Source: a virus. From it: DNA of 64,000 bases. Of this stretch, positions 30,983-63,228 are shown piece after piece. The DNA lies in IMG/VR virus record IMGVR_UViG_3300026522_000001, positions 1 to 64,000 of that record. One strand, written 5' to 3'. The notes under the pieces were generated by a model that did not search any database, had not been told where the DNA came from, and saw only the letters and a list, made by a program, of their open reading frames with translations. The stretch's first letter is position 1. Every line of letters begins with the position of its first letter. The position numbers were made by a program, and so were the translations under genes.

Positions 30983-31900
30983 TCACTCCAATTTTATACA
31001 AAAATATGAGTTGTTACTTCTCATTTGCTTTGTATCAAATGCAATATATTGTTCATTATTCCATGTCAATATACGTTCAGCATCTAAGTCTCTAGTACCA
31101 GAAATCCAATATACACCACGAAGAATACCATTTACATCTATTGGGTCATTTGTTTGTAACATTACTGGTATCAATAAGAAGTTATTCTGCTCAACTTGGC
31201 CATCTTCACGATAATTAGGAATTAGTTTCTCATTCTTAGCATTATATGGAAATACTGTACCTACTGTGTTATATCCATAGCTTGTGTTAAAATCAAATTT
31301 TCTCCATGTTCCATCTGCTCTACGCAAATATCCGCTACCACCATTAGGAAATAGGAATGACCCTTGTGTATTATTAGGCCATACACCGCCCTGTGATGTT
31401 CCATTACCTGCAATATACATTGGATATGGATATTGACGTTCACTTGCTATTGGATTTATAAATCCAATATACATACTCTCGTATACGATTGACATACGAG
31501 TTACTATTATTGCTCTATATGTATCTACAAATATCCAATACACAAACCTTTCATCTTTAGCCGTTGTATATGCTGGTTGTAATCCTATCTCTCCTTGATG
31601 AGATATTTTTAACCATTGTTGTATAGAACCAGGTTGTTCCCATAACATTAAATATTCATCATACCCTGCACATGAATCTAAATACATTCTTGCATTTGTG
31701 TTAGTATCTACTAATGCCTGTAAGTATATTTTATCATTGCCATCTCCGATGCCTTCCCATATGCAGTGCATTAGTCTATCATTACCATTATATGTATGTT
31801 TTTGTACTAAATGTTGTGTCCAACCTACCTTAACTAACATTTCATCTAGTTTTTCTATTACATCATATATTGAAGATGCTTCACCACTTACATAAGCCAA
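30983..31900 (-). CDS. Structural protein (paralog family; TTG start)
   Basis: 305 aa; SSIYDVIEKLDEMLVKVGWT N-terminal motif shared with the 457- and 1013-aa proteins. Confidence 0.55.
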   Translation of the reverse strand: MAYVSGEASSIYDVIEKLDEMLVKVGWTQHLVQKHTYNGNDRLMHCIWEGIGDGNDKIYLQALVDTNTNARMYLDSCAGYDEYLMLWEQPGSIQQWLKISHQGEIGLQPAYTTAKDERFVYWIFVDTYRAIIVTRMSIVYESMYIGFINPIASERQYPYPMYIAGNGTSQGGVWPNNTQGSFLFPNGGSGYLRRADGTWRKFDFNTSYGYNTVGTVFPYNAKNEKLIPNYREDGQVEQNNFLLIPVMLQTNDPIDVNGILRGVYWISGTRDLDAERILTWNNEQYIAFDTKQMRSNNSYFCIKLE

Positions 31901-31904
31901 TTTA

Positions 31905-32027
31905 TCACCCCATCTGCTTCATTAATTCATTCATGTCTAATTTTGAAAAATCAACATGATTCATTTGTTCCATCATTTCATTCGTCATATCCCTTGTTAT
32001 ACCCACCTGTGTCTCTACACTATTCAT
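31905..32027 (-). CDS. Possible 40-aa ORF translationally coupled to the next gene
   Basis: MNSVETQVGITRDMTNEMMEQMNHVDFSKLDMNELMKQMG; its end (ATGGGGTGA) supplies the SD for the TTG start at 31900; its own SD is weak. Confidence 0.3.
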   Translation of the reverse strand: MNSVETQVGITRDMTNEMMEQMNHVDFSKLDMNELMKQMG

Positions 32028-32061
32028 GGTGAGTATTGCACTATATGTTTCTATTTTTTTT

Positions 32062-32148
32062 TCAACAATTCATAAGAATTGTCTTGTAAATATTCTTTGA
32101 TTGCTTTTTACGCTCATCTGTCAATTTTTCAATAAACTTCTCATCCAT
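32062..32148 (-). CDS. Possible 28-aa ORF
   Basis: GGAGG SD 8 nt before ATG; consensus promoter about 35 nt upstream; MDEKFIEKLTDERKKQSKNIYKTILMNC. Confidence 0.4.
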   Translation of the reverse strand: MDEKFIEKLTDERKKQSKNIYKTILMNC

Positions 32149-32185
32149 ATTAATTTCCTCCGTGCTATCAAATTTCTATATATTC

Positions 32186-32214
32186 ATTATAGCATTTATA
32201 CAGCATTATGTCAA
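32186..32214 (-). promoter_or_regulatory. Consensus promoter restarting transcription of the baseplate/fibre genes
   Basis: Minus strand TTGACA (32209-32214)-N17-TATAAT (32186-32191); abuts the orphan omega-RNA-like end. Confidence 0.6.
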
Positions 32215-32218
32215 TAAA

Positions 32219-32371
32219 TTGACACTCCACATTTCTAAAAGCAGGAGATTCTTGGTTCAACAACCATTGCGCTTTCCGCCAAAGCATCTGGCGTCTTACA
32301 CGATTTCCCCAAGCGTGAATTCCCATGCAAAACATATAGCTAAATTATTTTAAAAAATAGAAATTTGACAA
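32219..32371 (-). ncRNA. Orphan (tnpB-less) omega-RNA-like IS605-family right-end copy with upstream promoter-like box
   Basis: Closely similar to 58446-58571 and shares the terminal hairpin and GTCTTACA box with the tnpB-linked copy; TTGTCA-N17-ATAATT at 32343-32371. Confidence 0.55.
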
Positions 32372-32386
32372 TGAAGTATAACTTGA

Positions 32387-32590
32387 CTATGTGTTTATAG
32401 TACCACATGACTTTTCATATGCCAATAGATTTTTATGAAAAATTTTATTTTTTCTTGAAGAAATTTCCAAAGATTTGAACAGTTCTTGTTTTGTGTCACA
32501 ATTAGGTAAACATATTAATATTTCCATAACTTGTTCATATGTCATTCTCATAGAAACTTCTCTACTATTACAATCCATATATGTAAACAT
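32387..32590 (-). CDS. Hypothetical 67-aa protein (possible small HTH)
   Basis: GAGGTG SD 8 nt upstream of ATG; no recognised motif. Confidence 0.45.
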   Translation of the reverse strand: MFTYMDCNSREVSMRMTYEQVMEILICLPNCDTKQELFKSLEISSRKNKIFHKNLLAYEKSCGTINT

Positions 32591-32689
32591 GAATTATAAC
32601 ACCTCAATATGTGTACTTAAATACAATATGCCATAAATAATATTAACTATTTAAGACATATTTTATATTATTACTTACATTTAGCCGTA

Positions 32690-32965
32690 AAATAAAATCG
32701 TACAAAACAGGGTAGGCGAAATCCTGTCACGATTTTAGATGTTACGGAGCACCTACATCTACAAATTTCTTATACCGTTTCTCTTGCAAGCAATGGACTA
32801 CAACAGCTTGGGAAATCCGTTACCTTATTAGAATCCAATCAGGTAGGAGTGCCTGAATCTCTTGGAACAGACAGTCCTACCTGATTGGAATTTTATTATC
32901 TAAATTAAGCAGGTTTCGTAAAGTCACTTCTTTTATACATAGGATAACACCTCGTTTATTGTCTT
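32690..32965 (-). ncRNA. Stand-alone structured RNA of about 270 nt (unknown class) with 11-codon mini-ORF at its 5' end
   Basis: Consensus promoter 32971-32999. SD plus ATG for MYKRSDFTKPA (32905-32940). 15-bp perfect hairpin 32834-32848/32875-32889. Further stems CAAGC/GCTTG and AGATGT/ACATCT. Nested terminal hairpin 32694-32736 followed by a U-rich tract. Confidence 0.55.
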
Positions 32966-32970
32966 TTTAT

Positions 32971-32999
32971 ATTATATCATTTTTGTTCTAATTTGTCAA
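32971..32999 (-). promoter_or_regulatory. Consensus promoter of the structured RNA locus
   Basis: Minus strand TTGACA (32994-32999)-N17-TATAAT (32971-32976). Confidence 0.6.
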
Positions 33000-33006
33000 A
33001 TAAAAA

Positions 33007-33047
33007 ATAGGTGCAAATAAGGAATTTATGCCCCCGTTTGCACCTAT
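33007..33047 (-). terminator. Intrinsic terminator ending the tape-measure transcription unit
   Basis: 11-bp stem ataggtgcaaa/tttgcacctat, followed by TTTTTT on the minus strand. Confidence 0.65.
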
Positions 33048-33321
33048 TATAAAATCTGCTAACTTACCTTTTAGTATTAAAGTACTGATAATACTTTAAT
33101 TTGGTATAGTTTATTATTTATAGAGTCTAACTCTGTTGATATATCTATATTATTATTTTGTATTACTGACTTTAATTTTGAAATATAGTTTATTATAGTA
33201 TCAGTATTCTGTTTACTATCTTCTGCCAACACAATATTTATATAATTTTTCATATACTAAATTATACTCTTATTAAATTCTTCTACAATTTCATCTTCTG
33301 TAATAACCTCACCTTCCTATA

Positions 33322-36300
33322 TTAATAGCTACCAACAATCTTATTAGTAAACTTAGCACTACCTCTTGTAAAGTCAAGCATAATTCTCTGACCTCTTGGT
33401 GAACGCATAAAGTGTGCTATGGCTTCTTCTTGGTTGCTTACTAATGCTACATTCATATTTGTTGTACTACTTACATTTGTTCCTAAAGTACTAGCAAATG
33501 TACTCATTCCTCTTGCAGTCTCTTGTGCCGCAACTTCACCACCATCTGCAAATTTAGGAACATTTATAATATTTGGTATTCTGCTAAAGTTACCATTATT
33601 TACAGCATTTAAGAATCCTGTTCCGTATTTTCTTACGGCGCTTGCTTTAACAACAAATTCTCCATTACTCAACATCGCAGGTATACTGTCACTTGTTGAT
33701 GTTCCTTCACCTTTAACATTTCCACCTGTAGAGAATTTTCTTATTAGTCCTCCATCCTTATGCCCTTGTTCTTTAGTTCCTTGCCCTGAAGGTATATTTG
33801 CAGCTGCTGTTGCTATAACGTCTAGTGCTTCCTTTGCACTTTTAGCTGAATCACTAAGTTCATCTAAACTAGTCTTTACTTCTGTTGAACTTTGCTGAAC
33901 TGCACTAGATAGCTGTTGCAAAGATGTATTTGTTTGTGATATTGTTGTTTCTATTGAAGCATTATTTGTAGCTTGCTGTGCTTGTGCAGAAGCATTTGCT
34001 ACTGTTGGAGTAGATAATGCTGATTGTGATTTCTTCAATTCACTATATGTTTTATTTTGGTCTAATACTCTAAAGTATCCACCAGTACCATCTTGCATCC
34101 ATGTATTTTTTAAGTCATAATTCTTTTTGCTATTATCCATCTCAAAATAATGACCAGTTTCGGGATTTTTAAGGCCTAATATATCTGAGGAATCTCTATA
34201 TGTTTGTAGACCCTGTATTCCAGTACCATCTTCTGATGCTATAATATGTAGCTGTGACCTGATAGGTGAAAAATAGTCTGTTAAACCATTTTTATCTACA
34301 TTTTTATATTGATTAAGTGTATATATTTGCCCTGGTGTTACTTTAGACGCAAGATTTTCTGTTGTTGGTTGTCTACCAGACTCGTCTTTTACTGGAAACC
34401 ATTGTTGCATAAGCCCTTCAACAAGTCTCTTTGCAAAGAACTTTTGCATTGTCTTTAGGAAATCTACAACCATATTTTGTAGAGCTTCACCTAATGAATG
34501 AGCTTCATTTACCCCGTCTGTAAGGAATGTTACAAGCCCATCTTCTAGTGCTTGTCTTGCAGTTTCATGCGTTTCTTCTAATAAAGTTTTTATATGACTT
34601 AACATACCAGAAATTCTCTCTTTATTAGCTATCTCTTGCATCTGACTCATAGAAGCTGTCTGTCTTTCCATCTGTAAAGCTATATCAGCATTTAACTCAT
34701 CTATTCTTTTTGTTACATTAGCCACTTCTTGAGAGCCTTGTGGAAGTCTATCTCTTTCTGCCTGTTTCTTGCTTAATTCTTCTCTTAATCCTGCTATTTG
34801 TATCTGCCTACTCATATAGTCATTATTCATAGCGGCATATTGTTGTTTATATGCTTTATTTAATTCGGCATTTTTATAGGCTTTCATCTCCTTATTTGCT
34901 TCTTCTCTTTGAAGGTTTGTCATAGGTATATTTTCTAATACACTATTCATGTAGTCATACCTATCAGAAATTGCTTGTGTCATACCATTTAATATACTAT
35001 ATAATTTTTCTTGTGCACTTATTAGCTTTTTCTTTATTTCTTCTGCTTTTTCAGAATTACCCATAGCTGTAAACTCAGCATATTGCTTTACTAGAGCTTC
35101 CATCTGATAAGCAGGTGTTTGTTTAGCAAGATTTATTTTTGTTCTAAGTGTATCTAATTCTTTATTGTACTCTGATAATTCAACATCTGATTTTTTCTTT
35201 GCAACAAAATATGCTTGTTCTTTTATTTTTAGGTCTGATTTTTTCTGATTCCAAATCTTCTGTTCTGCAAGTAAATCATCTCTTGTAATGTTCTTACCTG
35301 CTGTTTTATCAGACATATCAAAGCCCTTATTATACTTAATAAGCATTTCATAGAACTTTTGATTTTCTTTACTAAATTCTTTTCTTACTTTATCATAGTC
35401 TGATTTAGCGTTTTGTGTATTTCTTATATTAGCATATTTACCAATATCAGAACGCTTTAAACCTTCTCTTAAAGAGTCTTGTAAGCCTTTTCTCCAATAA
35501 TAACTATCAAACTGTTTCTTATTCTCATTGTTGTTTCTATACGCCCACTCTTTATCATTAGCTTCTTTCCAACTATTATAATAAGTCTTATATGACTCGT
35601 TCATCATATCATTACCACGAAGTGCTAATAATCTTTGTGTATCTGCATGTAAGTCATTTAATACATTTAGCTTATCAACTATTCCTTGGTTCTTAATATA
35701 ATTACTATCATTTAACTTCTTATATGCACTTTGTAGTTCTTCTTTTGATGAAAGTCTATAATAATAATCACTAAGCATATTTCTACTTTCTTCCATTGAC
35801 TGCCAAGAGTCAACAATATTTTTATTATTACCTGTGTTATTAAATCTCCAAAGTGCATCATTAGCAGGACGTTCTTTATCATTTATTTCTCTATATTTTG
35901 GATTTGATTTATCCCATCCTATTGAATCCATTTCTGTTTTATATTTTTTATATTCAGAAAATAAATAATTAAATTCACTTACTAAATCTTTTGCATTATT
36001 TTGTGACTCAAATACTTCCATCTTGCTTGTAAGATTTTCATAAGCTTTCTTTAATTCACTAAACCCATTAGGATTAGATAGGAAATCATATATTTTTTGT
36101 CTCTTATCGAGTGTATCTCTTATTAAGGATATACTTTCAGGTTTATTTATATAACCTATATATTTTTCTGCTAATTCACCAAAATCTGTATCATAGTTTT
36201 TATATTTTCCATAAGCAACTTCATATGCACGATACTTAGCTGTTGTTTCAAGTCTACTTATATTAAAGTCAAGCTGTTTTTCTAGTGCATCTGTTACAAC

Positions 36301-56427: not shown

Positions 56428-56456
56428 ATTCTAACACATATTAGCCCCAATGTCAA
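56428..56456 (-). promoter_or_regulatory. Second tandem promoter upstream of the tRNA array
   Basis: Minus strand TTGACA (56451-56456, overlapping the DUF2828 stop)-N17-TAGAAT. Confidence 0.5.
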
Positions 56457-58009
56457 CAGTATTTGAAAATTTCTTCGACAACGTCATAGCGGGACTTATT
56501 CAGCTGTCTGCAAAAGGCTTTATATGGGTCAAGTTCATTACAACAAACCATATCTACAAGCTCTTTACTAAATCCACTCAAAAGAATTACACCATTTCTT
56601 GAGCTTTGAATTGGGACTGTACCATCATTATAACAAGAGACATTCCAAAAAATGAGTTTAGGAAGTTCATACCCACAATCCTTATACTTCTTCTCAATAT
56701 TCTCAAATAATGTGTCATTTTCTTGTATATTTTGATTGCGTAATGGGAATCCAAATGCATCTGTATCACACATAGCAGTATTAAACTGCATATCAGAAAT
56801 GATAAGAACATTCTTTGGCATATCTGCCTGTGTCGCATTACACTTCTTTGCTGTTTTTAGGATGAGGTCAAATACAGATTCAACATTAGTTGTACTACAT
56901 TCTGTATTTTTCATTAGCTTTTCTATATTGTCCCTTAATGTATTGCAGTTTACTGTAATCATCTTTGGGTTATTAGAAAATGCCATGATTTTATCTTTGA
57001 ATACACCTGTATTATTTTTTGCACAATACAGAGCAATTGAATCCCCAATTTCCATCGCTGAAACATTTTTTGATACATATGATAACATAGAGCCACTTCC
57101 ATCTCTAACAACAAGCGTATCAGCAAATGTTTTTGGTTTCTTTTGAGATTCCCAAAGACTCTCTAGGGTATTGTCAACAGGTTTCATTCCAATGCCAAAA
57201 AAATTAGCATCTTTCTCATATGCATGAACTATGTCATACAAAAACATAGAATTAGCATTTATCTTATTTTCGCCACGAGCTACATCAATAAGATATTCAT
57301 TTCTTCTAGCAAAATCGTGCTTAAGAAAAGAATCCTTATACTTGATATTTGCTAAAGATGGTACATGAGAGTAATCTACTTTATCCCATTTATTTGAACT
57401 TAACTTTACCTCTAAAACATCTAGCCCTTTTCTTAGTTTAGAAAGTGTTTTTCTATACTGTGAAGGAGACATTCTAAAATATTTTCTAAGTTCATTACCA
57501 ACTGCTACTGTTTTCTTTGAAGATGTATTGATACTCGGCATCCATTTTGCTAAAAGACTGTATGGCTTTCCATTGGAATAATTATATAAGTCATCATAAA
57601 GCTGTTCTTGCAAAATCCCTGCAATATATATTTTTAAGTCATCATATTTTGTATTTGCAAAAAGATAAATATAGTCGTCCCATCTGCCAAATTCAGGCAA
57701 GTCAACCGTGTAAATAAATCTATAGAAAATAGACATATCGATTTCTGTAAGATGAAGTAGCAACTTTCTAAAAGTATCTCTTTCACCCATTCCTTCTCTG
57801 ACATCTCTCAAAAAGAGAAGGAATCTTAATGTCATAGCTTTATCTTGATAATATGCTTCATCAAAAAGAGAATAATCTATTGGATTTTCCCTAAATGATG
57901 AAACTTTATAGAAAAAATCTAAAAGTTTACTGCCTGTTGTAGCATAAGCTACTGCACCATTTTCTGTTGTTGTTTTTACATTGTTTTCAAGATTTTCAAT
58001 AAAATTCAT
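56453..58009 (-). CDS. DUF2828-family protein (TROVE-like N-terminal region plus vWA-like C-terminal domain)
   Basis: 518 aa; N-terminal TTENGAVAYATTGSKLLDFFYK...FLLFLRDVREGMGER as remembered for DUF2828; C-terminal VVRDGSGSM...LIISDMQF is vWA/MIDAS-like. Confidence 0.65.
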   Translation of the reverse strand: MNFIENLENNVKTTTENGAVAYATTGSKLLDFFYKVSSFRENPIDYSLFDEAYYQDKAMTLRFLLFLRDVREGMGERDTFRKLLLHLTEIDMSIFYRFIYTVDLPEFGRWDDYIYLFANTKYDDLKIYIAGILQEQLYDDLYNYSNGKPYSLLAKWMPSINTSSKKTVAVGNELRKYFRMSPSQYRKTLSKLRKGLDVLEVKLSSNKWDKVDYSHVPSLANIKYKDSFLKHDFARRNEYLIDVARGENKINANSMFLYDIVHAYEKDANFFGIGMKPVDNTLESLWESQKKPKTFADTLVVRDGSGSMLSYVSKNVSAMEIGDSIALYCAKNNTGVFKDKIMAFSNNPKMITVNCNTLRDNIEKLMKNTECSTTNVESVFDLILKTAKKCNATQADMPKNVLIISDMQFNTAMCDTDAFGFPLRNQNIQENDTLFENIEKKYKDCGYELPKLIFWNVSCYNDGTVPIQSSRNGVILLSGFSKELVDMVCCNELDPYKAFCRQLNKSRYDVVEEIFKYC

Positions 58010-59535: not shown

Positions 59536-60060
59536 ATGATTCAAAAACACATAAATATAAAAAATTTACAAGGAACAGTTTCTTTGAATAAAGATATTCT
59601 TGTAGATTTAGCAGAATTAGTAAGAATTTCACCTATTTCATCAAGACTATTATTCTTTATTATGGGTTATGCAGATGATAATAATGAAATTATTACAAAT
59701 GTAAAGACTTTATCTAAATATTTAGGAAAAAATAGAGGATTAATAGAATATGCAATTAAAAATCTAGTTAAAAATGGATATATTACTATGTCATGTGTAG
59801 ATATAGATAAATCTATTGATATTATTGGTAAAGAGCATGATATGGAACTCTATTTAGCTTCAAATAAACGTATTTGGAAAGTTATAGGAAATAAATATAT
59901 TGGAACTTTTAAGATTAAGGGAAAATATATTAAACTTAAAGTTAATGAGAATATTATTAAGTGTTCAAATAATAGAACAGGAAATATTATTCTTAATATA
60001 AAAGATAATTTATATTATGATACAAGAATTGAAGATAATGATTTAAAGTGGGAGTTATAA
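59536..60060 (+). CDS. Hypothetical early protein, possible winged-helix DNA-binding protein
   Basis: 174 aa; LSKYLGKNRGLIEYAIKNLVKNGYI is wHTH-like; first gene after the early promoter. Confidence 0.45.
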   Translation: MIQKHINIKNLQGTVSLNKDILVDLAELVRISPISSRLLFFIMGYADDNNEIITNVKTLSKYLGKNRGLIEYAIKNLVKNGYITMSCVDIDKSIDIIGKEHDMELYLASNKRIWKVIGNKYIGTFKIKGKYIKLKVNENIIKCSNNRTGNIILNIKDNLYYDTRIEDNDLKWEL

Positions 60061-61811: not shown

Positions 61812-62495
61812 ATGAGAAAACAAGACAATGATTATATAGACTTAAAGAATATGAAAGAAAGAGATAGAATATTCCTAAAGTTCAATAAAGAACAAAAAGA
61901 AATGTTTAAGTCTATACAAGATAATATATTCACATTTGTAGAAGCAAAGTCAGGAACAGGAAAGACATTAGTCTCTATTTCTGCTATGATTGACCTTTTG
62001 GCAAACGACGAAATTAATAAGATTGTGTATTTCCAAAAAGTAAGTGACAGATACCTAGAGCATGGATTTTTAGCGGGAAGTTTAGAAGAAAAAACAAATA
62101 TGCTTTGGACTCCATTTTATGATGCAATGAATACTTTAGGATTTTTTGAAAGCACTATTCAACATCTTATTGATAAAGAAATTATTGTATTGACAACAGA
62201 TAGTGTTCTTAGAGGAGTTAATTTAGAGAAGTGTGGTGTTATTGCAGATGAGTGTGAAAACTGTGACACAGAAACACTAAGGCTTATTTTTACAAGATGT
62301 CATGATGATTGTCATATAGTAATGCTTGGTGATTCAATGCAAAAAGACAATGCACATAAAGATAATAAAGAGTTTGTTTACTATGGTGAATATCTTTCTA
62401 ATCAAGAATTTGGTGATAGATGCAAACTAACTAAGAATTATAGAGGTAAATTCAGTAAGTGTGCAGAAGATTTTATTTATAATTTTAAAGAATGA
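61812..62495 (+). CDS. PhoH-like ATPase
   Basis: 227 aa; Walker A EAKSGTGKT, Walker B VIADECEN, LGDSMQ. Confidence 0.75.
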   Translation: MRKQDNDYIDLKNMKERDRIFLKFNKEQKEMFKSIQDNIFTFVEAKSGTGKTLVSISAMIDLLANDEINKIVYFQKVSDRYLEHGFLAGSLEEKTNMLWTPFYDAMNTLGFFESTIQHLIDKEIIVLTTDSVLRGVNLEKCGVIADECENCDTETLRLIFTRCHDDCHIVMLGDSMQKDNAHKDNKEFVYYGEYLSNQEFGDRCKLTKNYRGKFSKCAEDFIYNFKE

Positions 62496-62509: not shown

Positions 62510-62680
62510 ATGACATATACTAAATTAAAAAAAAATACTATTGATTCAGTCCTTGCAAATAATGCAATAACTGATAAATCTAGCAAAATTAGTCAATATA
62601 TTAAGTTAATGGAAGATTTTAGTAATAAATATGAAATTTACTTTTTAACTGTTATGGATAGTGATGGTGATACACATTGA
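62510..62680 (+). CDS. Possible 56-aa ORF (below the ORF-track cutoff)
   Basis: ATG at 62510; stop overlaps the TTG start of the next ORF (CATTGA). Confidence 0.35.
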   Translation: MTYTKLKKNTIDSVLANNAITDKSSKISQYIKLMEDFSNKYEIYFLTVMDSDGDTH

Positions 62681-63228
62681 GTACTGATAGTAGAGCTTTT
62701 TTTGAGCGAGAACTAAAGATTTTGGAGGATGAATCAGAAAAAGATGATAAGGCTATTTTTGATAAAACAGGCAAATATCCTTCTCCTTCTGCTTTGTCCG
62801 TCCAAAAGAAAGTTACAAATGCTATCTTAGAATTACATGATGTATTTGCTAAACAACATCATGATAATTTTAGTGCTAGTTATGTAATGGATTTATTTTA
62901 TAAACTTGTTCATTTTACACCTCTTTCGCCGCTTACTGGTAAAGATGAAGAATGGGAACCTGTAGATGGTATGGATAATACAGAATATAATACTAGATTT
63001 ACTGGTATTAGTCGTACTAATAAAGATAATAGTACTGCTATTTGGAATGATGGTATTCTATTTTGTGAACCAAATAATAATAATTGGTTTGGGGCTAAAG
63101 AATCAAGAGTAAACGTATCATTTCCTTTTTCTGATTTTGCGCGAAAGCTATATGTGTTGAAATATAAATGTGAAGATAAACCTATTGCAGACCAGCTTAA
63201 AGATGGAGATTATGAGGTTGTGAATTAA
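62677..63228 (+). CDS. Hypothetical protein
   Basis: 183-aa ORF with no recognised motif. Confidence 0.5.
   Translation: MSTDSRAFFERELKILEDESEKDDKAIFDKTGKYPSPSALSVQKKVTNAILELHDVFAKQHHDNFSASYVMDLFYKLVHFTPLSPLTGKDEEWEPVDGMDNTEYNTRFTGISRTNKDNSTAIWNDGILFCEPNNNNWFGAKESRVNVSFPFSDFARKLYVLKYKCEDKPIADQLKDGDYEVVN

Follow-up and report, generated by a model that had tools for sequence, protein, structure and literature searches.

Attenuators, riboswitch-like leaders (an aptamer plus a terminator) and cis-acting antiterminator RNAs such as HK022 put are among the systems with which a structured RNA in the leader of a phage gene can be compared. Small mobile DNA offers a second comparison: mycobacteriophage mobile elements (MPMEs) are ~440 bp long, have short terminal inverted repeats and a small open reading frame (ORF), and occupy many sites. 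MPME1 and MPME2 are described as ultra-small phage mobile elements (PMC5356059, PMC3029335), and tRNA-linked theta ribozymes have been reported in gut phages (PMC10879173). Here, we analysed a 64,000-nt stretch of viral DNA (positions 1 to 64,000 of the IMG/VR virus record IMGVR_UViG_3300026522_000001), referred to below as the window, and in particular element A, a 236-nt segment on its minus strand (32687..32922) in the 5′ leader of a gene for a 67-amino-acid (67-aa) protein. We tentatively favour, with a rough probability of 0.45, the reading that element A is an accessory, co-transcribed structured RNA cassette, acting either as a small RNA (sRNA) or as a leaky attenuator, which forms part of the leader of the 67-aa unit in a hypervariable island of non-coding RNA (ncRNA). 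A preliminary description of the locus had listed a promoter, an 11-codon mini-ORF, a 15-bp stem, several smaller hairpins, the 67-aa ORF and a plus-strand TTTTATT, and all of them are present where it placed them; its interpretation of these features required more revision.

An optional insert in the leader of the 67-aa gene

The locus was compared with about 25 related metagenomic contigs, labelled L0xx, and relatives of the insert region were obtained via the exact 67-aa and 58-aa proteins of the window. All comparisons are between metagenome assemblies, and several contigs (L033, L040) end in or beside element A, which agrees with population polymorphism, though assembly artefacts are another possible cause. 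Three near-identical contigs (L034, L035 and L037) lack exactly window positions 32922-32687 and keep the promoter, a Shine-Dalgarno (SD) sequence with its ATG, the spacer and the 67-aa ORF. This exact absence, together with the retained promoter, SD plus ATG and ORF, indicates that the promoter serves the 67-aa gene and that element A is an optional leader insert, rather than the stand-alone locus proposed in the preliminary description. Judged from these alignments, element A is a discrete optional unit in the 5′ leader of the 67-aa transcription unit. It runs from TTTACGAAACC to GATTTTATTTTAC with a 2-nt 'AC' ambiguity at the boundary, and eight distinct sequence variants, diverging by at most ~10%, were recovered. 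Its 3′ edge is the exact point at which homology to the canonical leader of the 67-aa gene restarts in L075, and in L033 the same 5′ edge is joined to a different upstream sequence without such a promoter. These sharp boundaries speak for a co-transcribed cassette.

The unit is headed by a perfect sigma-70-type promoter, TTGACA-N17-(TG)TATAAT (32971..32999, minus strand; match score 12/12), with a predicted start near 32964; every related contig has it unchanged, whether or not the RNA insert is present, and its invariance likewise supports the cassette reading. Just upstream lies an intrinsic-terminator hairpin followed by UUUUUUAUUU (33006..33048, minus strand; free energy (dG) -19.6 kcal/mol, z -5.5), a strong terminator hairpin that probably ends the tape-measure/58-aa ORF transcript. 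The preliminary description had set the promoter right after the tape-measure terminator; the hairpin does precede the promoter, but a 58-aa ORF (33253-33077) also lies between the tape-measure stop (33322) and that hairpin (33048-33006). Across the window, perfect TTGACA-N17-TATAAT sites number 11 (chance expectation, 0.38), and all but one lie on the gene strand; as far as these motifs indicate, the transcription signals of the phage are host-type.

Two different empty junctions, GTGAC|GGCT and GTGACTT-CAA-GGCT, occur in alleles without element A, and their end points are essentially identical. The flanks of these alleles are more similar to the window (99.5% identity for L037, 97.7-98.4% for L034/35) than are those of the A-bearing contigs L038 and L039 (95-96%), so that vertical descent implies that element A was lost, probably twice. 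Having near-identical end points and different junctions, the losses could have arisen by structure-prone deletion, co-infection recombination or site-specific excision. Other deletions of 110-172 nt, the loss of a tRNA included, are found throughout the region.

Precise gain and loss of this kind could also be the work of a small selfish or mobile element, resembling miniature inverted-repeat transposable elements (MITEs) or palindrome-associated transposable elements (PATEs) or being of a new kind, with precise insertion and excision; insert B, an unrelated 231-nt insert at the analogous leader position in L054, and the copies of a neighbouring structured motif (the region-2 motif) would then be analogous. 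The base-precise presence and absence of element A, the shared end points of the empty junctions, its alternation between two left flanks, the nearly equal size and analogous position of insert B and the occurrence of TTTAC at both of its own ends all fit such an origin, which we nevertheless consider distinctly unlikely. No terminal inverted repeat (TIR) or target-site duplication (TSD) was detected in 32640-32970, which speaks against a MITE or an insertion-sequence derivative, and a direct repeat in that interval (D1, 21 nt, 76% identical, AT-rich, one copy lying 12 nt inside element A) is at chance level. The left flanks, GTGAC in the window and GTCAA in L033, contain no constant target motif. 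The two subterminal hairpins (UCCAAUCAGGUAGGA... on the left and AAAAUCGUGACAGG... on the right) are unrelated to each other, which departs from the end architecture of an IS200/IS605-type PATE. Annotation of the 1.1-kb insert and its immediate neighbours, the rest of the window being not fully annotated, revealed no tnpA or tnpB and no transposase, TnpB or reverse transcriptase. Furthermore, element A is single-copy in the window by blastn and nhmmer, and a covariance model of it searched against the window plus 30 loci (238 kb in total) recovered only element A itself. Exact-pattern scans of IMG/VR, JGI metagenomes and GTDB genomes, which need exact matches of 22-27 nt and would miss diverged copies, yielded no relatives, and the seven pattern matches in JGI metagenomes were all unrelated GC-rich terminator hairpins. 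Parsimony also prefers loss over gain.

A group I intron was considered and rejected. The junctions, GTGAC|TTTACG...TTTTAC|GGCT, carry a 2-nt ambiguity, none of the three registers gives U|...G|, there is no match to RF00028, and the empty alleles restore no ORF (they leave a 7- or 12-codon peptide). Element A is non-coding: no ORF is conserved on either strand, neither a 30-aa ORF on the plus strand, which is lost in the L038-L047 clade, nor a 22-aa ORF on the minus strand being kept among the variants. It matches none of the 4227 families of Rfam 15, among them riboswitches, T-box, ribozymes, 6S, Y RNA/YrlA, tmRNA, group I/II introns, GOLLD/ROOL and HEARO. An E-value-mode scan of 31800-33600 on both strands returned only mir-1420 on the palindrome, at 22 bits against a gathering cutoff of 70, and a whole-window scan at gathering thresholds found four tRNAs and nothing else; ARAGORN detected no tRNA or tmRNA at element A. 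Nor is it a diverged copy of insert B, to which it has no similarity, or a copy of the region-2 motif (profile ..GUAAGAC..GAAUCCCC..GGGGAGUGUCAA), since nhmmer --max with a hidden Markov model (HMM) built from 17 copies gave no match at E<=100.

Folding, variation and strand

The 236-nt core folds at -72 kcal/mol, compared with -48.1 ± 4.5 kcal/mol for shuffled sequences (z -5.29; 0/200 shuffles), and the 10% diverged variant in L039 still folds with z -4.16. With this excess and the absence of a match to Rfam on either strand, the proposal of a structured RNA of no known family stands. The fold is also strand-biased, as the opposite strand was always weaker (z -4.52 and -3.26) and the consensus fold reaches -49.5 kcal/mol on the gene strand against -40.9 kcal/mol on the plus strand. 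GC content peaks at 0.40 in element A, against 0.22-0.33 in the flanks. The strand-biased fold excess, the GC peak and the lack of a conserved ORF each favour a co-transcribed RNA.

Convergent antisense transcription, raised in the preliminary description, belongs with a wider set of plus-strand or DNA-level roles, namely a bidirectional terminator, a palindrome bound by protein or an antisense RNA. Either strand of the 15-bp palindrome can fold, and on the plus strand, where the z-score is still -4.5, UUUUAUUAU comes after it. Even so, we regard any such role as highly improbable. The consensus fold of the plus strand is less stable by 8.6 kcal/mol, with next to no covariation term, and many G-U pairs become C-A mismatches on that strand. 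All genes at 83-58009 lie on the minus strand, no strong plus-strand promoter was found nearby (the best promoter-like sites score 9/12), and in L038-L047 the palindrome is not conserved, the 30-aa ORF being lost there as well.

In the RNAalifold consensus, the 5′ part of element A forms domain 1, a long irregular hairpin of ~106 nt (32812..32917, minus strand), which is also seen in the single-sequence minimum-free-energy (MFE) folds of L038-L039. It contains the 15-bp perfect stem and an inner 6-bp helix (32834..32889, minus strand; arms 32834-32848 and 32875-32889), with the inner helix and the 8 bp at the base of the stem conserved, and two further helices extend this stem: H1 pairs 32917-32907 with 32825-32812, and H2 pairs 32903-32899 with 32832-32828. 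The 5′ end of element A, GAAACCUGCUU, pairs with AAGGYAACGGAUUUC in the consensus. All 7 of the 7 varying pairs of domain 1 stay paired, via G-U/A-U/G-C changes.

The remainder folds into smaller hairpins. The repeats AGATGT/ACATCT and the nested 3′ hairpin of the preliminary description were recovered as inverted repeats I4 and I3. The former is present as an inverted repeat, but the variation among contigs favours another register for the third hairpin, UAGGUG/CAYCUA (32755-32736), within a hairpin at 32729..32758 (minus strand). In L039-type variants, four coordinated substitutions turn this hairpin (32758-32729) into a perfect 10-bp helix and include the sole compensatory pair, a change from G-C to U-A. 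Element A ends in a moderate terminator-like structure at 32687..32737 (minus strand), AAAAUCGU-G-ACAGG ... CCUGU-UUUG-UACGAUUUU; the nested hairpin AAAATCGT..ACGATTTT (32737-32693) has a dG of -13.7 kcal/mol and a z-score of -3.8, and is followed by the U-tract AUUUUAUUUUAC. Alternative pairings are predicted for the 3′ strand of this terminator: in the alifold prediction, alignment columns 141-151 pair with columns 222-232 in a helix that would compete with the 3′ hairpin, and such pairings are AU/GU-rich and without covariation support.

Across seven distinct sequences and 69 pairs, we counted one compensatory pair and 12 one-sided changes that keep pairing. This variation with retained pairing, the lengthened hairpin of L039 and the 3′ hairpin with its U-tract complete the internal evidence for the cassette. 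On this evidence, the host RNA polymerase would start near 32964, and the first ~275 nt of the transcript would fold into the ~106-nt irregular hairpin, a less defined second domain and the 3′ hairpin with its U-tract. That hairpin is, in the window, most likely a leaky intrinsic terminator, with a partial stop at 32695-32687, so that the output would be a discrete RNA of ~275 nt, with less read-through into the 67-aa ORF that lies 96 nt downstream. The duplex of >20 bp would be a substrate of the RNase III type. Close phages gain, lose and re-join the cassette itself as one unit, as they do with the neighbouring tRNA and motif modules.

Several results weigh against this reading. The natural loss of element A indicates that it is not needed for phage viability. 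It is the fastest-evolving segment of the region, with 3.0, 7.2 and 10.2% divergence against 0-1% in the ORF and 1-6% in the other non-coding flanks. The stems are not uniformly conserved among the variants: the upper 7 bp of the 15-bp stem are broken by a 2-nt deletion and mismatches in the L038-L047 clade (5/8 variants), and the L042/43/45/39 clade (4/8 variants) no longer has the lower stem of the 3′ hairpin, whose dG there is only -5.9 kcal/mol (z -0.65). Even in the window, the terminator scan did not call the 3′ hairpin, which has an 11-nt loop and an AU-rich stem. The single-sequence MFE folds of domain 2 differ among variants. The covariation score was reached by 18/500 shuffles, and unconstrained related sequences, here at a divergence of <=10%, can give such a score. 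Finally, no trans target emerged, antisense matches of element A within the window being only 11-15 nt long and at chance level.

Much of this would suit a functionless relic, left over from an earlier recombination (for example, a foreign structured RNA fragment), now drifting and being deleted, with hairpins that were inherited rather than selected. Element A is the most diverged segment of the region, its stems are broken across a whole clade, its covariation signal is not significant, parsimony gives at least two losses with the empty alleles closer to the window than L038/39, and the region is full of deletions of 110-172 nt. Nevertheless, a fold excess of z -4.2 to -5.3 persists after 10% divergence and is strand-asymmetric, substitutions at paired sites mostly keep pairing and some lengthen a helix, and the same exact boundaries in two left contexts suggest that selection keeps the unit. 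We therefore judge a relic unlikely, although it is the alternative to be taken most seriously.

Fast evolution and dispensability would also be explained if the main function of element A were that of a trans-acting decoy or anti-defence RNA, such as a mimic of a CRISPR repeat/anti-repeat, a toxin-neutralising RNA or a partner of the DUF2828-vWA protein. The accessory distribution and the retained fold agree with this, as does a layout like that of a natural single-guide RNA (a ~33-nt 5′ single strand, a long duplex, small hairpins and a terminator), and the phage has other counter-defence genes, e.g., a homologue of Tad3. On the other hand, the 18-mer TCCAATCAGGTAGGASTG, which covers either arm of the stem, had just seven exact matches in 185,579 GTDB species genomes, all single chance matches with unrelated flanks and no repeat arrays, which led us to reject a CRISPR-repeat mimic. 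The lack of an Rfam match and of detectable similarity to the neighbouring motif family also counts against a decoy, and we hold this function to be improbable.

The preliminary description had further suggested that a leader peptide controls the 67-aa gene. The mini-ORF (MYKRSDFTKPA, 32905..32940, minus strand) has a GAGGTG SD 7 nt before its ATG, in the same GAGGTGTTAT context as the 67-aa ORF. Element A begins after its sixth codon, and its last five codons plus stop, inside element A, overlap the 5′ strand of H1 (32917-32907), so that ribosomes on the 11 codons might melt H1 and, given the predicted alternative pairings of the terminator 3′ strand, switch between terminator and antiterminator. 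We consider such attenuation very unlikely. The peptide is MYKRSDFTKPA with element A, MYKRSDG in L037 and MYKRSDFKAKCK in L034/35; since its C-terminus depends on the presence of element A, it is not a conserved peptide, and it contains no codon runs and no repeated or regulatory codons. The SD and ATG are kept in L034, L035 and L037, which have no structure to control; in L038-L047 the SD is weakened by mutation (CGAGG to CTAGG), and one clade has lost the terminator stem. The SD-like GAGG can be aligned by eye with the start of the canonical non-coding leader (AACGAGGUUAG in L063). A fuller match between the mini-ORF segment and the 5′ portion of that leader was not upheld, being suggestive by eye only and unconvincing in a MAFFT alignment. 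Leader-peptide attenuation is thus unlikely, and what remains of the attenuator layout is the position of element A in the leader of the 67-aa gene, on the gene strand, with, in the window, a terminator-like 3′ end.

The insert region and the usual home of the 67-aa unit

The window is 100% identical to ENA contig ERZ27252042 k141_323065 (87.6 kb), and the names of related contigs include "pig gut metagenome". No DNA similarity to the window was found among GenBank phages. In a comparison of large terminases, the nearest cultured phages, those of Clostridium tetani, reached just 46% identity, which points to an uncultured phage with a host of the low-GC Firmicute type. The locus occupies a 1.4-kb gap, flanked by a tape-measure gene of 2777 aa (41655-33322) and a structural gene of 305 aa (31900-30983; PHROG 687). 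PHROG 687 aligned only from profile position 161, and a split gene or intron was considered on that ground; 120 homologues of ~300-320 aa indicate that the gene is complete.

Most of the gap is an insert of ~1.1 kb (32219..33313, minus strand), bordered by the tape-measure gene and the baseplate operon's ancestral promoter. L021, with 93% identity in the 305-aa protein, has just 82 bp of sequence, forming a terminator, in place of window 32219-33313, and homology restarts at a second perfect promoter (32214-32186), which identifies that promoter as the ancestral one of the baseplate operon. Nineteen more distant relatives in IMG/VR have the tape-measure gene, a spacer of ~70 bp and a gene of ~85 aa before the 305-aa gene, and element A is absent from the 19 IMG/VR loci carrying this neighbouring gene. 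Across contigs, the insert is a mosaic of small indels. The 67-aa unit may be viewed as a moron-like insert of ~1.1 kb between the tape-measure and baseplate genes of a pig-gut Firmicute phage, probably ordered as promoter (32999-32971) and 67-aa ORF, to which relatives add tRNA-Leu and a structured motif.

The AT-rich spacer between element A and the ORF (32591..32686, minus strand) starts with GGCTAAATG at 32686, shares homology with the final part of the leader that canonically precedes the 67-aa gene in L075 and contains a degraded copy of that leader's terminator hairpin; by blastn, window 32686-32328 corresponds to L075 1760-2116 with 92.5% identity. The 67-aa ORF (32387..32590, minus strand) is the conserved gene of the transcription unit, diverging by 0-1% where element A shows 3-10%. 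Its protein family is small (11 clusters), with no sequence match in Pfam, PHROG or PDB. An AlphaFold2 model (a beta-hairpin plus three helices; predicted local distance difference test score (pLDDT) 76) has no fold match in PDB. Downstream of the insert, an 80-aa gene that precedes the 305-aa gene (window 32148-31905, minus strand) is intact in L021, L030, L034 and L035 and is broken in the window into ORFs of 28 and 40 aa by length changes in poly-A runs near 32110 and 32062; in L020 and L033 it is also broken at the second run (near 32062). The breakage could be either a homopolymer sequencing error or a slippage-prone site.

In L048-L063 and L075, the 67-aa gene has a different home. There a divergent promoter region is followed first by the 67-aa gene and then by tRNA-Leu(CAA), copies of the structured motif and a DUF2828-vWA gene, and the 67-aa gene is preceded by a conserved leader of ~85 nt (leader L) with a terminator hairpin. 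Leader L reads AACGAAAGUUAGUAYGUUAAGUAA..GCAAAGYCGCACUAAAU..CUGAAUUGAAWAUGUGGGGCUA and is followed by differing terminator hairpins (e.g., L075 1690-1765); window 32686-32591 retains only its 3′ end. It has no Rfam match and a pattern search of IMG/VR found none, and in its sequence it looks riboswitch- or attenuator-like. The window has the tRNA/motif/DUF2828-vWA neighbourhood at 56.4-59.5 kb, without the 67-aa gene.

Insert B (L054 2130-2360) is 231 nt long and structured (z -3.0), and lies in the leader of a homologue of the 67-aa gene. It is absent from six near-identical contigs, L048-L053, by nhmmer (L048, L050 and L051 were aligned), and its absence from L061 was read directly from the sequence. 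Its size and relative position are nearly those of element A, its sequence is unrelated, and its core is a diverged region-2 motif (independent E 1e-3; a later HMM match included that copy). Other phages thus also have terminator-ended structured leaders at this position (leader L in L048-L063 and L075, insert B in L054), which adds to the case for element A as a co-transcribed cassette. A long shot is that element A, insert B and the region-2 copies are cargo of an undescribed modular system, in which structured RNA units of ~110-240 nt are precisely inserted into and excised from promoter-proximal leaders and intergenic spacers of gut Firmicute phages. Having no usual transposon ends, it would perhaps use an RNA- or single-stranded-DNA-based mechanism, and its units could be exchangeable RNA tools, e.g., anti-defence decoys or DUF2828-vWA partners.

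The tRNA-Leu(CAA) follows the 67-aa ORF in L030 (5262-5348), L033, L048 (2764-2850), L050 and L054 (2760-2846), the copy in L033 being decayed (23.9 bits, below threshold). The window lost this tRNA and the first part of the motif at 32328/32327 through a deletion of ~172 nt, and keeps another tRNA-Leu(CAA) at 58355-58273. What remains at 32219..32327 (minus strand) is a 5′-truncated copy of the region-2 motif, a structured RNA family of ~125 nt that has tRNA-Leu(CAA) just upstream in relatives. Its consensus is AUACCGUGGGGCACACGG-GAAUUCACGCUUGGGGAAAUCGUGUAAGAC-[variable hairpin]-GCAGUGGUUGUCGAACCAAGAAUCCCC-[hairpin]-GGGGAGUGUCAA, and the family is not in Rfam. Copies lie on the minus strand of the window at 58570-58440, 32327-32219 and 11372-11217, and elsewhere in L054 (2904-3012, 3069-3192 and 3880-4006), L016 (2544-2670) and L064-L067. 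Covariation is strong: 9/25 pairs are changed on both sides in a compensatory manner, and 0/500 shuffles reach the score. One copy opens a transcript right after the perfect promoter at 58600-58572 and precedes tRNA-Leu(CAA), and a divergent subtype follows a 370-aa ORF in the window and, syntenically, in L016. Inspection by eye suggests two competing alternatives, a long-range helix (CUUGG/CCAAG) and a local hairpin (UGGUU/AACCA); in the divergent subtype, each of them covaries. The motif could serve as a switch, as a processing site or as an RNA bound by protein.

Directly 3′ of the tRNA-Leu(CAA) at 58355-58273, a candidate HDV-like (hepatitis delta virus-like; theta-type) ribozyme at window 58273-58216 (minus strand) reaches 22.2 bits with RF02682 (E 0.13), for which the gathering score is 44, and its position agrees with that of the tRNA-linked theta ribozymes of gut phages. 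The DUF2828 plus DUF7788/vWA protein (518 aa, 56453-58009, minus strand) adjoins the tRNA/motif cluster, and its gene is the constant downstream neighbour of the 67-aa gene/tRNA/motif cassette in other phages. An RNA partnership with this protein is conceivable; as to whether it is a relative of Ro60/TROVE, there was no PDB sequence match and no useful literature. The window also encodes a homologue of the Thoeris inhibitor Tad3 (62677-63228, plus strand; E 9e-19) and a PhoH-like ATPase (61812-62495, plus strand). The extremely AT-rich window segment 59440-58950, with a long palindrome (tatatatacgaacgtagtgagtatatata ... tatactcactacgttcgtatatata), belongs to the divergent promoter region that separates a 174-aa helix-turn-helix gene (59536-60060, plus strand) from the minus-strand operon; this may be a replication origin or an operator region.

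Significance and comparison with known systems

If functional, element A would represent an orphan class of phage-encoded structured RNA, and the natural A-plus and A-minus variants in pig-gut samples provide a ready-made genetic test. Being lineage-restricted and dispensable, it is of modest immediate significance, and the surrounding ncRNA island, especially the covarying ~125-nt motif, may reward study more. The tape-measure/baseplate junction and the early leader form a hypervariable island of RNA modules, with the tRNA-Leu, the ~125-nt motif (three copies in the window) and inserts A and B. Annotation centred on proteins does not see such islands, which are plausible sites for RNA-based regulation or counter-defence.

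Among described systems, phage 'moron' units and sRNA leaders share with this locus a sigma-70-type promoter of their own just after an upstream terminator, and 'moron' units also a position between conserved structural modules and absence from a close relative. Phage sRNA and leader RNAs are likewise short structured transcripts that end in a hairpin and U-tract, as predicted here. Unlike 'moron' sRNAs, element A shares its promoter with a downstream protein gene and the RNA part alone is optional; compared with base-pairing sRNAs, it is unusually long and duplex-rich. Attenuator and riboswitch leaders resemble it in lying directly downstream of a strong promoter and upstream of an ORF, and in a terminator-like hairpin end with predicted alternative pairings; moreover, in other phages the homologues of the 67-aa gene are preceded by another conserved leader, with a terminator. 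Element A differs from them in having no Rfam match, no conserved core and a terminator that is not conserved, and in that its gene is also found without any such leader.

With MPME1/2 and with MITEs or PATEs, element A has in common that a small intergenic segment is present or absent with base precision among near-identical genomes, whereas, in contrast to MPMEs, it is 236 nt long, has no TIR, TSD or ORF, and occupies one locus only. Phage tRNA/ncRNA islands, including those with theta ribozymes (PMC10879173), are comparable in the array-like stretch with tRNA-Leu(CAA) and a covarying motif, and in neighbouring modules that are shuffled, duplicated and deleted as units. Compared with tRNA and ribozyme islands, element A is not tRNA-like, contains no detectable ribozyme and has no similarity to the motif family. 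Set beside all of these systems, element A is an orphan, lineage-restricted and optional RNA cassette.

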